DNA from: an uncultured archaeon
GTDB lineage: Archaea > Asgardarchaeota > Heimdallarchaeia > Heimdallarchaeales > Kariarchaeaceae
NCBI GenBank assembly: GCA_964645535.1
Contig: CAZYCQ010000003.1
Location: forward strand, 43,328 to 107,327
Reading direction: 5' to 3'
DNA: 64,000 nucleotides
Numbering within the stretch: position 1 is the first letter of the stretch; the number at the start of each line of letters is the position of its first letter. The notes under the pieces are model-generated. The model was not told the origin of the DNA and ran no database searches. It worked only from the letters and a program-made list of their open reading frames with translations. The position numbers and the translations under genes were made by a program. This document shows, piece after piece, positions 45,019 to 59,304 of the stretch.

Positions 45019-45966
45019 TCAACTTGCAAGGGTTATATCCGAATTTGCGTGCCGTGAAAGAATATGACTATATTTTTCTTTTATTTTTGCTGCTTCAACC
45101 CTTTCCATTGCCAATTCCACATATTTCTGTTCCAGCTCGGTTCCCAAAAAGGTTCGTTTGGTATGGAGAGCTGCAATCGCCGTCGTTCCACTTCCCATAA
45201 AAGGATCAAACACCACATCTTCCTTGAAGGAATAGAGTTGAATCAATCGGTAGGGAAGCTCAATCGGAAAAGGAGCAGGATGACCGATACGTTTGGCCGA
45301 GGTTGTCGGAAAGTTCCAGATGGATTTGGTGAATTCCATGAATTCTTCCCTTGAAATTGTTGATGTTTTGTCTTTTTTGGCCCGTTTCATGGTGCCTTTT
45401 GAGAAAACCAAGATATATTCATGAACGTCACGAAGAGTGGGATTGGAAGGACTCTTCCAAGACCCCCAAGCAGTGCTGGAACCTGCACTTGCCCCCTTGT
45501 CCCAAATGATCTCACCTCGTTGTAGATAACCAATGTCAGAAAGGATTTGAGAAACATAATCCGAGATGGGAATATATGGTTTCCTTCCCACATTTGCAAT
45601 ATTGATGGCAACTCTTCCTCCATCAACCAATTTGGGATAGATCTCTTCAAACACATCTCGAATAAGCTCTAGGTATTCAGTGAGTGAAAGATCCATGTCG
45701 TAATCTTTTTTGGCGTTGTAAGGGGGAGAAGTCACCACAAGATGGAGGCAATTGTCAGGAATAAAGGAAAGATCACGGGCATCTGCCTGGACAATGGTAT
45801 TTTTGAGATGGGAAGGCAATTCATTCTCTTCACCTTTGGGGCTATAGTTAGGTGCTTGACGGATTTCCCGGTACATGGCAGATTCGTAAAAAATTGAGGA
45901 ATCGTGATTTTCGCGTTTTGAAGCACCAAAAGAACTAGTTTTCGTCCGTTTTTTCATGACTTTCAC
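45019..45966 (-). CDS. Beta-class N4-cytosine/N6-adenine DNA methyltransferase (N6_N4_Mtase family), SPPY catalytic motif
   Basis: Motif IV VVTSPPY (SPPY = 45718-45729) precedes the AdoMet motif I FDPFMGSGTT, which is the beta-class order. GHPAPFPIELP block present. The ORF-track start is GTG at 45966; the ATG at 45957 (MKKRTK...) is more likely. Confidence 0.85.
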   Translation of the reverse strand: MKVMKKRTKTSSFGASKRENHDSSIFYESAMYREIRQAPNYSPKGEENELPSHLKNTIVQADARDLSFIPDNCLHLVVTSPPYNAKKDYDMDLSLTEYLELIRDVFEEIYPKLVDGGRVAINIANVGRKPYIPISDYVSQILSDIGYLQRGEIIWDKGASAGSSTAWGSWKSPSNPTLRDVHEYILVFSKGTMKRAKKDKTSTISREEFMEFTKSIWNFPTTSAKRIGHPAPFPIELPYRLIQLYSFKEDVVFDPFMGSGTTAIAALHTKRTFLGTELEQKYVELAMERVEAAKIKEKYSHILSRHANSDITLAS

Positions 45967-46008
45967 TCACAATGTATATCGTTCGGTAAGGCAACAAACT
46001 CCTTTGAT

Positions 46009-46016
46009 TATATAAA
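46009..46016 (-). promoter_or_regulatory. TATA-like box (minus strand TTTATATA) for the small SPPY methyltransferase
   Basis: Lies 45-55 nt upstream of the candidate starts (45966/45957), inside the 325-bp spacer. This suggests transcription independent of the upstream operon. Confidence 0.35.
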
Positions 46017-56068: not shown

Positions 56069-59000
56069 AATTTCACCTCCATTTCATCAGCCAAATGGAA
56101 ACCCGCAGTAACTGCATAGATTTCTTTGGACCGAATTGTATACCTGTTTGGAATAATGTGATTTTGCATGAATTCAGATTCCTGTTTTGCATGTTTCTCT
56201 ACTGATTTAATGTATTCATTGTAACCTGTTTGGAAGAAGTGGTCAATTTCCTCCTCAAGTTGTCTGATCTTTTTTTCTTGGAGCATTATCTGCCTTTTAT
56301 GTTCTTCAGGATCGAAGTACATGTCTATGCTGGATGTCTGAAGGGTCTCAAGAATCTTCTTTTCATGTTCAAACTGCTTCCTCAAGATGTTTGAATAGAT
56401 AGAACGGTTTCGGAGCTCATCCAATTTTTCAGCAAGGATTTGTTTTTCCCTGTTAAGTTCCTCCATTTTCTGTTTTTCGATTTTTTCCTGAATTTTCTGG
56501 GTAAGTTTTTCTGCATGCAGACCAATATTTTCCTCAATTTTTGAAGAATTGCTCACCCAAAATTTCCGAATATCTGAGATCAATCCTTGGTGAAGTTGAA
56601 TTTTCTCTTCTTCATTACCAAGGTTGGGATTATCTGAGGGTCCCCGAAATTCTAATAGCCTCCTCTTAAGATCGATTTTGAACTCAAGTGATTCAAGGGA
56701 AGCATGAATAATTTCGGAAAGATTATTTCGAAAGATTAAAAGGACATTGATTTTAAGAACATTTTGGTCTGCCTTGCTATCTATGACCAAATACCAACGA
56801 GTAAGAGCGGTATCAGTATCCCAAATGAAGGATCGCATTGTAATCAGCGCTCTTTCCATCAGGGGATGCCCTAGCGTCAAAAGCTCCTTTGTATCAGATT
56901 TTCTGAAAACCTTCCTGTTGTTTTCTTCAACCAGGAGTTCATTATGATCGAATACGAGAACCTTATTGGTTTTATGGAATAGTTGGTTGAAAATTTTCTC
57001 CCACTTTCCGAATTTTGTTACAATTAAGCCATTAGCTTCCTCCCGAGCATCACCACCAACAAACTTTAGGGCATGAAGGAAAACCTCTTTCATGGTTTCA
57101 GGATAGAGGTTGAAGTAACGGTTTGTCTCGATGAAGCTCATACTAGCGGACGTAGTATTCTTGATGTTGAATTCTTTTGGAGTCATGTCCTTAACTGGGT
57201 CACTCTCGAACTCGAATTCATCTAATGTTGTTTGTTGATAATCCCTCAAATATAGATGCCTTAAAATTAGGCTTTCCAAAATTTCACCAGTCTTTCCGAG
57301 ATCGTCCCTGATGCTAGCTACTTTTTGTGCGATTTTGTTCAAAAATTTCAGGTCATCGTTTTGGTCGGAGGCAAAATGGTAAACATAGACATCTCTGGAT
57401 TGACCATGTCTATCAACCCGTCCAATTCTTTGTTCAATTTTTGAGGGGTTCCAAGGGATATCATAATTTATGAGGTATCTACAGAAAAATTGCAGGTTCA
57501 TCCCTTCTGCTGCGGTATCAGAAGCAATGAGAATTCTCTCTCGGGTATCTTTTGCATTGAAAGCTTTGATTATTCTTTCCCTCTCGGAAGCCGATGTTCC
57601 TCCATGAATAGTTGCTATTAATTCCTCCAACCGTTTGTCCTCTGAAATTAATCGATTTTGAAGGTATTCCAAGGTATCAACATATTCCGTGAAAATGATA
57701 ACTCGTTCATCTTCCTTCTCAACCACCTTTGAATTTAGCCAATTGACCAATGCATTAAATTTTTCATCATTTATCTTCTGAAATTGATTCCCTGAATAAC
57801 CCAGCCTTGCAAGTTGTTTGTTTATCCGTTCATGAATTTGTACAACATCTTCTGATGCTGTTTTTGGTCGAATGACCGTTGAGGCTGACTTTAGCGCGTT
57901 TTTTTCCAGCCTTTCTTTTTCTTCGTCGGTTAATTCTTTCTGAAGGGCATTCTTTATTTGTCTTCTTGCTTCATCATAAGTAATTTCATAATCAATCTCT
58001 GTTGGAAGTGTGTGCATTTTCCATGATATGCTGAAAGCCCAGCCAGATGAAAGCAGTCGTTTTTTGAAAAATGTGACCAAATATCCAGTAATGCGTCCGT
58101 AATCCTCATTTTGATCCTTATTTTTCAAAATGTCAAGATATTCATCGAGCAGTTCGAACAGTTTAATTTCATCTGGTCCGTATTCCAGCCTTATGATTTC
58201 ACTCTTTCTCTCAGTAAAGTAATTGTTACCATTCGGATCTTTTATCTCAGATTTAATTCTCCTGATGACGCTTTTTGGGATTTGTTTCGCCATGTGAGAA
58301 TCTTTGGGAATTTCTGTAGTCTGATGAAAGTTTAGTGGATCCAAAATTTCAAGCAGCCCAGTAAACGAAGATGTAAAGCCATTGTGGGGAGTTGCGGTTA
58401 AAAATATCCGATGGCTACAGAAGGCCGAGACTTCGCGCAGCATCATTGTTCTCAGACTATTTGAAGCCGTAAGATTTCTTGGAGCGAAGTTGTGGGCTTC
58501 ATCAACAATCAACAGATCCCAAGCCCTTCTTGAGGATTTTTCCCGGCTTCTCGCCGCAAAAATGAAGCTGTTTTTTACATCCTCCTGACGGAGATAATCC
58601 ATTGAGGTTATTATGCGTGCAATGGATCGCCAAGGGTTGTAGTCAAAGCCGTATTTTCTTTGTAGATGATTTCTGGTTTGGGAGTTTACAATGGTGAAAT
58701 TCAGTTGGAATTTTTCGCGTAGCTCCTCTTGCCATTGACTTTGGAGAGCTGACGGGCAAATTACAAGTATCCGTTTCACTCCCCGTTGAGCGATCAATTC
58801 TTGCATTATTAATCCTGCCTCGATTGTTTTTCCAAGCCCTACACCGTCTGCAATAAGTAATTTTACCCTGTTTTGTTTGAGGGCGGTATACACAGGTAGA
58901 AGTTGGTAGTCCTCAATTTTCACTGCACTCTTCCATGGACTCACAATGGACAATTTTTTGTCATTTTCGCTTAACATGTTATAACCGATTGTTGTCCACC

Positions 59001-59304
59001 TGACTGCATTGATAAATGAGTTCATGAAACCAATATTTGTTGGATTTGCTTCTCTGACAGGTGGCATCTCCAAATTGGTATAAATCTGTCTATCAATTTC
59101 TCTCTCCCAGAGGATTGTCTCTTCTCTCGATCCAAAGGATTGGTCTAAATATTCAACCTCAACCAAGTGAAGGTTTTTTGAATTCTCTTCCATGGAATCA
59201 GACTTTTCTGAGGTCACAGATACTACAACCGCCCTGCGGCCACGGACTCTGACAAGCTGACCGGCTTGGGGAATTTCGGGGGAATTTTCGTAACTCCCTC
59301 TCAT
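56065..59304 (-). CDS. SNF2-family helicase/ATPase (DrmD-like), 1079 aa
   Basis: LIADGVGLGKTIEAG (DGVGLGKT = 58825-58848), IVDEAHNF (DEAH = 58492-58503), LTATPHNG, AAEGMNLQ, YDIPWNPSKIEQRIGRVDRHGQ. The C-terminal ~430 aa is unassigned and includes a Lys/Glu-rich coiled-coil-like stretch. The stop overlaps the MTase start (ATGA, 56065-56068). Confidence 0.9.
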   Translation of the reverse strand: MRGSYENSPEIPQAGQLVRVRGRRAVVVSVTSEKSDSMEENSKNLHLVEVEYLDQSFGSREETILWEREIDRQIYTNLEMPPVREANPTNIGFMNSFINAVRWTTIGYNMLSENDKKLSIVSPWKSAVKIEDYQLLPVYTALKQNRVKLLIADGVGLGKTIEAGLIMQELIAQRGVKRILVICPSALQSQWQEELREKFQLNFTIVNSQTRNHLQRKYGFDYNPWRSIARIITSMDYLRQEDVKNSFIFAARSREKSSRRAWDLLIVDEAHNFAPRNLTASNSLRTMMLREVSAFCSHRIFLTATPHNGFTSSFTGLLEILDPLNFHQTTEIPKDSHMAKQIPKSVIRRIKSEIKDPNGNNYFTERKSEIIRLEYGPDEIKLFELLDEYLDILKNKDQNEDYGRITGYLVTFFKKRLLSSGWAFSISWKMHTLPTEIDYEITYDEARRQIKNALQKELTDEEKERLEKNALKSASTVIRPKTASEDVVQIHERINKQLARLGYSGNQFQKINDEKFNALVNWLNSKVVEKEDERVIIFTEYVDTLEYLQNRLISEDKRLEELIATIHGGTSASERERIIKAFNAKDTRERILIASDTAAEGMNLQFFCRYLINYDIPWNPSKIEQRIGRVDRHGQSRDVYVYHFASDQNDDLKFLNKIAQKVASIRDDLGKTGEILESLILRHLYLRDYQQTTLDEFEFESDPVKDMTPKEFNIKNTTSASMSFIETNRYFNLYPETMKEVFLHALKFVGGDAREEANGLIVTKFGKWEKIFNQLFHKTNKVLVFDHNELLVEENNRKVFRKSDTKELLTLGHPLMERALITMRSFIWDTDTALTRWYLVIDSKADQNVLKINVLLIFRNNLSEIIHASLESLEFKIDLKRRLLEFRGPSDNPNLGNEEEKIQLHQGLISDIRKFWVSNSSKIEENIGLHAEKLTQKIQEKIEKQKMEELNREKQILAEKLDELRNRSIYSNILRKQFEHEKKILETLQTSSIDMYFDPEEHKRQIMLQEKKIRQLEEEIDHFFQTGYNEYIKSVEKHAKQESEFMQNHIIPNRYTIRSKEIYAVTAGFHLADEMEVKL
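56073..56080 (-). promoter_or_regulatory. Shine-Dalgarno GGAGGTGA for the large methyltransferase
   Basis: The minus strand reads GGAGGTGAAATT-ATG. It lies inside the 3' end of the SNF2 gene. Confidence 0.5.

Follow-up and report, generated by a model that had tools for sequence, protein, structure and literature searches.

A contiguous armA-armB-armC operon in an uncultured archaeon is very probably an ARMADA Type I antiviral system

Which kind of defence system is formed by three very large and closely packed genes in the genome of an uncultured archaeon? The genes lie on the minus strand of a 64,000-nucleotide stretch of contig CAZYCQ010000003.1, here called the window, and code for an SNF2-type ATPase, a large gamma-class adenine methyltransferase and a DEAH helicase, with a smaller, beta-class DNA methyltransferase next door. 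A first-pass annotation made from the sequence alone had read the locus as a DISARM/Druantia-like defence island that fitted no described system and could be a new variant or family. That last claim does not hold, since the combination is that of ARMADA Type I (Bell et al. 2025, bioRxiv 10.1101/2025.09.15.676423), of which a catalogued relative, MDQ0257513.1, is available for comparison. We conclude that the locus is very probably an ARMADA Type I antiviral system, with the order armA-armB-armC and the BREX-like mechanism proposed below. It is a divergent further member of a described family and no new kind of system.

The family was named the “disARM-related Antiviral Defense Array” (Bell et al. 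2025). ArmA is a BrxHII/RapA-like SNF2 helicase and ArmB a PglX-like methyltransferase, and Type I consists of ArmA-ArmB-ArmC with a Vsr fusion and includes archaeal members. The order SNF2-methyltransferase-helicase (armA-armB-armC, reversed) is described as typical of archaea and cyanobacteria, and Type II, which adds ArmD, as absent from archaea. In the published phylogeny of YprA helicases, the ARMADA helicases group with Druantia and not with DISARM, and the repair branch is separate from the defence branch (Bell et al. 2025). ARMADA was cited as established by 2025-26, and a 2026 mBio paper gives ARMADA II as predicted on an E. coli island by DefenseFinder.

The placement of the window locus follows from its helicase. 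Among the Table S1 entries listed from Bell et al. 2025, MDQ0257513.1 from Evansella vedderi is an “ARMADA Type I helicase”, and the Dictyobacter and Nostoc entries are likewise Type I. The window ArmC aligns with MDQ0257513.1 (P0033) over residues 2-1745 with 956 bits and 34% identity. The corresponding scores are 137+137 bits with the Type II ArmC of E. coli EDL933 (WP_000937974.1; comparison locus taken from NZ_CP008957) and 135+102+53 bits with DruE of E. coli Druantia III. In a neighbour-joining tree, which carries no support values, the window ArmC falls inside the clade that holds MDQ0257513.1, and the E. coli ArmC pairs with a helicase (L068) that carries ArmD immediately downstream. 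A tblastn search with E. coli ArmD found no homolog in the window, and the same query matched L068, L009, L035 and L069. Neither UvrD-type nor PLD proteins were found among the window open reading frames scanned by Pfam. As a separate observation, UvrD helicases that are 32-35% identical to E. coli ArmD adjoin helicases of the Type I-like clade in two loci (L009, 6824-8812, plus strand; L035, 22840-24873, minus strand), and ArmD may thus not be strictly confined to Type II.

The SNF2 protein has the features of ArmA. It contains a Walker A motif, DGVGLGKT, at residue 153 and a DEAH motif at residue 268, and is recognised in Pfam by SNF2-rel_dom (6.5e-19) and Helicase_C (1.2e-23). In PADLOC it matches DrmD over its full length (7.8e-202) and also BrxHII (3e-83), and it passes the NCBIfam equivalog DISARM_DrmD, NF038317, with 669.7 bits against a cutoff of 610. 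Its closest solved relative is RapA (1.4e-38).

The large methyltransferase, ArmB, contains motif I (DPAMGSGSF) at residue 608 (nt 54221-54247) and motif IV (NPPW) at residue 897 (nt 53369-53380), which is the gamma order. Pfam assigns Eco57I (1.3e-22), N6_Mtase and a weak MmeI_Mtase match, and there are weak matches to PglX. The PADLOC match to DrmMI (7.4e-125) is restricted to residues 11-907, and the model REase_MTase_IIG PDLC03622 (3.2e-164) runs along the whole protein and is the better fit. The comparison with solved structures gave no relative, Pfam detected no nuclease domain, and the N-terminal 550 or so amino acids are without assignment. The C-terminal 600 or so amino acids are presumed to be the target-recognition region. 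In three Type I loci from Streptomyces (L069, L074, L081), ArmA is 90-93% identical, ArmC 84-90% and ArmB 62-79%, and the identity of ArmB falls to 35-45% in its C-terminal half, after the catalytic motifs. Judged from these alignments, this pattern looks like the expected signature of a swappable target-recognition domain. In the Type II system of E. coli, no gene of the island varies more than armB, and its deletion mutant is viable but has lost defence.

The helicase, ArmC, contains GKT at residue 115 and DEAH at residue 253, and its Pfam matches to DEAD (1.6e-23), Helicase_C (2.7e-12) and MZB (2.3e-7) are all above cutoff. Alignment of 15 sequences shows that four cysteines of the MZB module (1584, 1588, 1592 and 1595) are invariant, as are the CxxC pairs at 505/508, 578/581, 618/621 and 956/959. 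These pairs fall within residues 505-621 and 956-975, at the positions expected for the zinc modules of ARMADA, whose Type I ArmC is described with BrxA-like, beta-barrel zinc-binding and MarR-like insertions. The best PADLOC match is DruE3 (5.9e-114), with DrmA at only 7e-20, and the body of the protein is best covered by DruE models, PDLC00037 at residues 12-707 and other DruE models at about 880-1330. The NCBIfam models of DrmA reach 21-22 bits, with cutoffs of 950-999. Among solved structures, 9tu7 (E. coli DruE) comes closest, with E 1.5e-63, and MrfA, 6znp, is found at 2.5e-24. Relatives of ArmC number in the thousands and are full-length, about 1800 amino acids long and 33-36% identical, in both bacteria and archaea.

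The C-terminal end of ArmC matches DUF559 in Pfam (20.8 bits, cutoff 20.6) and also MTES_1575. Because the Pfam match was marginal and a profile search against the PDB uninformative, we turned to hhalign and to fold comparison. Aligned with a stand-alone Vsr protein encoded elsewhere in the window (25088-25558), the last 160 or so residues of ArmC gave a probability of 83.6% and an E-value of 8.2e-6, with the PD and IAI[YF]IDGxx[FW]H motifs in register. An AlphaFold2 model of the domain has a mean predicted local distance difference test score of 82, with most of the core above 90, and its best Foldseek match in the PDB is 3r3p, the Vsr-like catalytic domain of I-Bth0305I (E 2.3e-4, target TM 0.75). 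Further matches are the DUF559 protein 3hrl and, with 4oq2 and 4par, Vsr-like nuclease domains from PvuRts1I and AbaSI; 3hrl and 3r3p are also the structures given for the Vsr domains of ArmC by Bell et al. 2025. P1680-D1681, D1694-G1695 and D1706 are invariant in full-length bacterial and archaeal homologs, and H1701 is nearly so. The model and the alignments together predict that ArmC ends in an active Vsr-type nuclease of the PD-(D/E)xK superfamily.

To what extent do the three genes belong together? The window proteins were used to score 80 loci taken from species-representative genomes, and the linkage was counted in the 25 loci of the window's clade that have at least about 8 kb of flanking DNA. 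ArmA and ArmB are both found near ArmC in 17 of these 25, and in three more ArmB is at the edge of the fetched DNA. The trio of an SNF2 protein, a large Eco57I-type methyltransferase and a helicase with MZB is also present in Dictyobacter (Chloroflexota) and Clostridioides difficile, and on a metagenomic contig in a different order. ArmB is located directly upstream of the helicase in two of the three archaeal relatives, from Methanomassiliicoccales and Theionarchaea; the Theionarchaea contig begins inside ArmB, and its “unannotated 543-aa gene” is the C-terminus of ArmB cut by the contig end. The third archaeal relative, which lacks ArmA and ArmB, is placed among SIR2, AAA_15/RloB and AbiEii genes.

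The loci vary in several other respects. About one in five close ArmC-like helicases (L013, L033, L057, L059, L067, L087) has neither ArmA nor ArmB in the 5-10 kb of flank, and several of these adjoin defence-type genes such as AbiEii, AAA_15/AAA_21, RloB, SIR2 and RelA-SpoT/Schlafen. Such helicases may have other partners, or partners encoded elsewhere. A recurrent AbiEii-helicase module was considered and rejected, as BLAST shows no homology between the AbiEii genes of L013 and L087. In many loci of the Type I clade (L010, L016, L019, L026, L032, L036, L072) 1-7 kb of extra genes are inserted between armB and armC. In one subfamily, ArmC is 1965-1999 amino acids long (P0050, P0096 and others) and contains a fused, LexA-like Peptidase_S24 domain (PF00717), and a group that includes L037 and L049 has a gene with HTH_3 and Peptidase_M78 between armB and armC. 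These extra genes and peptidase additions suggest regulated variants of ARMADA.

A number of points weigh against the assignment to ARMADA Type I. Five of the 25 close relatives of ArmC, and one of the three archaeal ones, have no ArmA or ArmB nearby, and the helicase can therefore occur in other contexts. RMG34078, the public entry for the window helicase, is not among the Table S1 entries listed, and its placement is hence by similarity to a catalogued member and by the neighbour-joining tree. Its nearest relatives are only 34-35% identical, and the best one in a search of 5.8 billion proteins reaches 35-36%, so that the lineage is a divergent one. At the C-terminus of ArmC, the DUF559 score is barely above the Pfam cutoff, and the sequence profile of the domain found no relative in the PDB, its single match (E 0.08) being spurious. 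The Vsr domain of Type I is itself marked “active?” by Bell et al. 2025. All experiments on ARMADA concern Type II, with its fourth essential gene, ArmD, and no methylation data are reported for any ARMADA system; the main text of Bell et al. 2025 does not contain the string “methylat”.

The anatomy noted in the first-pass annotation is otherwise borne out. The coordinates of the open reading frames, the ATGA overlap, the 9-nt spacing, the GAGGTGA and all quoted motifs were recovered by direct reading of the sequence, and profile searches in Pfam returned SNF2, Helicase_C, MZB/DUF1998, Eco57I/N6_Mtase, N6_N4_Mtase and, marginally, DUF559. The annotation had correctly recognised homologs of the DrmD and DrmMI proteins of class 1 DISARM, a DruE-like helicase that unites the DrmA-type and DrmB-type modules in one polypeptide, and the absence of a PLD-type DrmC, with a Vsr/DUF559-fold nuclease fused to the helicase (Pfam, hhalign, Foldseek). 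The 2023 models of PADLOC split the labels into DrmD for ArmA, DrmMI or Type IIG for ArmB and DruE for ArmC, and tools of that age would make no canonical call. This division among DISARM, Type IIG and Druantia labels is a trait of profile libraries of the 2023 era. The locus looked unassignable because these libraries split the labels and because the public metagenome-assembled genome in GenBank breaks the operon over two contigs.

Could the locus instead be class 1 DISARM of a non-canonical kind, with DrmA and DrmB joined in one protein and a Vsr nuclease in the place of DrmC? The DrmD equivalog and the DrmD and DrmMI matches in PADLOC speak for it, and ARMADA is by name and description related to DISARM. 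However, the helicase is far below the DrmA cutoffs and matches DruE much better than DrmA, no separate DrmB (a DUF1998 open reading frame of its own) and no PLD-type DrmC are present among the open reading frames of the locus or window, and ARMADA helicases belong with Druantia in the YprA phylogeny. Membership of class 1 DISARM is already refuted by the DrmA, DrmB and DrmC results, and we regard this explanation as highly improbable. The same DruE matches, together with the E. coli DruE structure as the closest solved one, could be taken to indicate a Druantia-type system centred on DruE, next to which a methyltransferase and an SNF2 gene lie by chance. This is exceedingly unlikely, given that no DruH homolog was detected in the window or the related loci (tblastn, E. 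coli DruH query), that there are no DruA-D, DruF, DruG or DruM-like genes, and that the nuclease has the Vsr fold, where DruE of type III has a pair of PLD domains. Moreover, the similarity to E. coli DruE is limited to the helicase core and MZB, and the linkage to ArmA and ArmB is kept across phyla.

There is an equally minute chance that the 1502-aa protein belongs to the Type IIG restriction-modification enzymes, with the two helicases as functionally separate neighbours. This reading draws on PDLC03622, which extends along the entire protein, and on the Eco57I and weak MmeI_Mtase matches, but it is at odds with the absence of a nuclease domain detectable by Pfam, with three genes that overlap or are spaced by 9 nt and are found together in bacteria as well as archaea, and with the need for all genes in Type II ARMADA. 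The “Type IIG” label that PADLOC-DB 2.0 puts on ArmB-type proteins is most likely a filing older than ARMADA, and the legacy label of PDLC03622 can mislead the automated annotation of full-length proteins of this type. A role in DNA repair or housekeeping, as for the founding YprA/MrfA helicases, which act in mitomycin C repair, is barely conceivable. The helicase is of the YprA family and MrfA is one of its solved relatives, but the YprA repair branch lies apart from the defence branch and the related Type II system confers phage protection. The linkage to a methyltransferase and an SNF2 protein, the fused nuclease, the patchy distribution over phyla at about 34% identity and the defence-gene neighbourhoods of the relatives all fit defence. 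Finally, the beta-class methyltransferase might be a functional part of a four-component, locus-specific variant, for example as a second self-mark or as a substitute for ArmD. Like armC it is on the minus strand, and it follows armC with no restriction partner gene in sight. Yet its 325-bp distance from armC differs from the overlap and the 9 nt among the three ARMADA genes, a tblastn search of 83 related loci detected no homolog less than 10 kb from the helicase, and a phmmer search against the 2952 open reading frames of the loci gave one weak match, 8 kb away and on the opposite strand. Over 88 related loci in all, this weak and distant match is the only counterpart. We therefore consider a four-component variant very unlikely, and ARMADA Type I with three components remains the preferred reading.

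The small methyltransferase itself has SPPY at residue 80 ahead of FMGSG at residue 256, and thus the beta order. SPPY is more typical of N4-cytosine enzymes. The protein matches N6_N4_Mtase in Pfam (153 bits, 1.5e-44) and MTase_II PDLC03350 in PADLOC (3.1e-116), which groups it with ordinary Type II methyltransferases. Its start in the public annotation is three codons downstream, giving 312 amino acids. It is a locus-specific, independent and probably orphan neighbour and not a conserved component of ARMADA, and the first-pass reading of it as a feature of the system is not supported. The spacer that precedes it is present as that annotation stated and contains the octamer TTTATATA, but the octamer is at chance level in the window (two found, 1.75 expected), and the “TATA box” of the annotation is therefore positional only.

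Taken together with the Type II experiments, the domain content of the three proteins suggests how the system may work. In E. coli, all four Type II genes are needed for phage protection, which also depends on the Walker motifs in ArmA and ArmC and on NPPW in ArmB, and protection is direct and without cell death, that is non-abortive. DruE is reportedly an ssDNA-binding helicase that unwinds in the 3'-to-5' direction. In the window system, ArmB would be the specificity module, methylating a host motif at adenine N6, and, like PglX in BREX, would also be needed for the recognition of foreign DNA that is unmodified. Together with ArmB, ArmA would be an ATP-driven motor that moves along double-stranded DNA or remodels it. 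ArmC would load where the invading DNA is single-stranded or has an end and move 3'-to-5' like MrfA and DruE, and its Vsr-fold nuclease would then nick or cleave the invader, resulting in direct, non-abortive immunity. Here we infer host methylation, methylation-based discrimination of self from non-self, the activity of the nuclease, and both the substrate on which ArmC loads and its polarity.

A bolder proposal is that the contiguous archaeal trio suffices by itself, without ArmD, as a restriction machine of helicase and nuclease guided by methylation, and that the beta-class methyltransferase, possibly an N4-cytosine enzyme, is functionally tied to it, for example by setting a second self-mark that tempers ArmC. 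We think this combination unlikely. If true, it would represent the minimal form of ARMADA and the first one demonstrated to function in an archaeon, with a methyltransferase arrangement seen in no other ARMADA locus examined. As it stands, the locus leaves the knowledge of defence systems unchanged. It adds a complete, uninterrupted archaeal example to a family named in 2025 and is a candidate minimal system for the Type I branch, in which questions about ARMADA can be addressed, such as host methylation by ArmB, the recognition of foreign DNA and the cutting of DNA by the Vsr domain.

The positions of the genes, junctions and domains are collected in Table 1. The GAGGTGA sequence ahead of the armC start codon is at 51555-51561 and overlaps the stop codon of armB. 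The spacing of armA, armB and armC suggests that the three genes are translationally coupled.

Table 1. Positions in the window of the ARMADA genes, their junctions and domains, and the neighbouring features.
Feature	Position	Strand	Details
armA (SNF2/RapA-like, BrxHII/DrmD-like ATPase)	56065..59304	-	1079-aa open reading frame
armB (PglX/DrmMI-like gamma-class N6-adenine DNA methyltransferase)	51560..56068	-	1502-aa open reading frame
armC (YprA-family DEAH helicase-nuclease, RMG34078.1)	46292..51550	-	1752-aa open reading frame
ArmC RecA1	50654-51280	-	
ArmC Helicase_C	48335-48529	-	
ArmC MZB/DUF1998 zinc-binding module	46763..46981	-	residues 1524-1596; PF09369, 31.8 bits, cutoff 24.2
ArmC C-terminal Vsr/DUF559-fold nuclease domain (predicted)	46319..46570	-	residues ~1661-1744
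armA/armB junction	56065..56080	-	GGAGGTGA at 56073-56080, then ATGA stop/start overlap at 56065-56068
armB/armC junction	51548..51562	-	TGA stop at 51560-51562, 9-nt spacer, ATG at 51548-51550
Spacer between armC and small methyltransferase	45967..46291	-	325 bp; contains TTTATATA at 46009-46016
Beta-class N6_N4 DNA methyltransferase (neighbour)	45019..45966	-	315 aa from GTG
1480-aa protein and 559-aa double ABC_tran ATPase (left flank)	38898-45016	+	open reading frames overlap by 4 nt

On the right, the operon is flanked by genes for a fused isobutyryl-CoA mutase, IcmF (1784 bits), and BacA. On the left, the 559-aa protein is a double ABC_tran ATPase (2e-62), and the 1480-aa protein contains a signal peptide and about 11 hydrophobic segments and has no match in Pfam, NCBIfam or PADLOC; the two are probably an unusual, large ABC transporter. 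The ATPase matches mad3 and AriA in PADLOC, and we considered the pair as a second defence system. This was rejected on account of the transporter features, the matches being generic cross-matches at the level of the ATPase domain. No tRNA, Rfam family, integrase, or flanking direct or inverted repeat was found around the operon, and its G+C content is unremarkable. Because the flanks consist of housekeeping genes such as IcmF, BacA and the ABC transporter and are devoid of an integrase, a tRNA or flanking repeats, the locus is a single system between housekeeping genes and not the defence island that had been suggested.

The window helicase is identical to RMG34078.1 from a metagenome-assembled genome labelled “Methanobacteriota archaeon” (GCA_003696825.1, L089). 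In that genome the operon is split. Contig RFHV01000491.1 stops inside armB, leaving a 217-aa fragment (RMG34079.1), and ArmA (RMG39036.1) and the remaining part of ArmB (RMG39037.1, partial) are located on a separate 9.6-kb contig, both annotated as “hypothetical protein” in GenBank. In the longer assembly of the window (108 kb) the parts are joined. The archaeal origin of the DNA, already proposed in the first-pass annotation, agrees with the label of this genome at NCBI. The valyl-tRNA synthetase encoded in the window passes the model PRK13208, which we take to be the archaeal-type model, and a TrmB-family regulator is also present. All three are consistent with an archaeal source, an assignment that rests on metagenomic binning.

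Other genes in the window are worth recording. A Ras-family small GTPase is encoded at 29413-29994 on the plus strand (Pfam Ras 2.9e-38, also Roc and Arf), and the metagenome-assembled genome is labelled euryarchaeal. Apart from eukaryotes and Asgard archaea, few organisms have GTPases of the Ras/Rab type. A 2535-aa protein with FG-GAP/beta-propeller repeats (19-7626, plus strand) is presumably a surface protein. QueC, the 7-cyano-7-deazaguanine synthase (22471-23208, plus strand), stands alone at 23 kb from the ARMADA operon and most likely serves housekeeping archaeosine synthesis and not a DNA modification module of the Dpd/BRIGADE type. The Vsr protein used in the comparison above is a stand-alone very-short-patch repair endonuclease on the minus strand, recognised by Vsr in Pfam (1.2e-21) and passing the NCBIfam model vsr with 132.9 bits against a cutoff of 97.85. 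Vsr is usually found with a C5-cytosine methyltransferase, and none was seen among the window open reading frames scanned.

How does the locus compare with the known systems? As in BREX, ArmB is PglX-like and ArmA BrxHII-like, and the methyltransferase is needed for defence in Type II ARMADA, as PglX is in BREX. In contrast to BREX, there are no open reading frames for PglZ, BrxC, BrxA or BrxB in or beside the operon, and the effector is a helicase-nuclease, which BREX lacks. ArmC and the DruE protein of Druantia type III represent sister YprA lineages with similar insertions, but the locus has no DruH, its helicase ends in a Vsr fold where DruE has PLD domains, and Druantia III does not contain the SNF2 and methyltransferase partners. 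The DrmD-equivalog SNF2 protein and a core of a YprA-type helicase with DUF1998 are shared with class 1 DISARM, and the methyltransferase resembles DrmMI in its N-terminal 900 or so residues. The locus differs from class 1 DISARM in that the helicase is not DrmA, DUF1998 is fused and not a separate DrmB, and the nuclease is of the Vsr fold and not a PLD-type DrmC.

The likeness is closer within ARMADA. ArmA, ArmB and ArmC are homologous to the proteins of the Type II system of E. coli (ArmABCD), with 191 bits for ArmA, 100+63 bits for ArmB and the 137+137 bits given above for ArmC, and the order armA-armB-armC is the same. However, Type II has the essential armD, coding for a GajB-like UvrD helicase with a RelE-like domain, directly after armC, whereas the window has the N6_N4 methyltransferase, 325 bp away. 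The Type II ArmC is 2113 amino acids long and carries an additional EEP-like domain and a second Vsr domain, whereas the window ArmC has a single one. From the known Type I systems the locus deviates in a slightly shorter ArmC (1752 amino acids versus about 1800) and in the adjoining, locus-specific beta-class methyltransferase, and from many Type I relatives in its contiguous trio without the 1-7 kb insert. It shares with Type I all three components, the lack of ArmD, the archaeal host and the order armA-armB-armC, as well as an ArmC that combines the helicase core with CxxC-rich insertions, DUF1998 and a single C-terminal Vsr nuclease.

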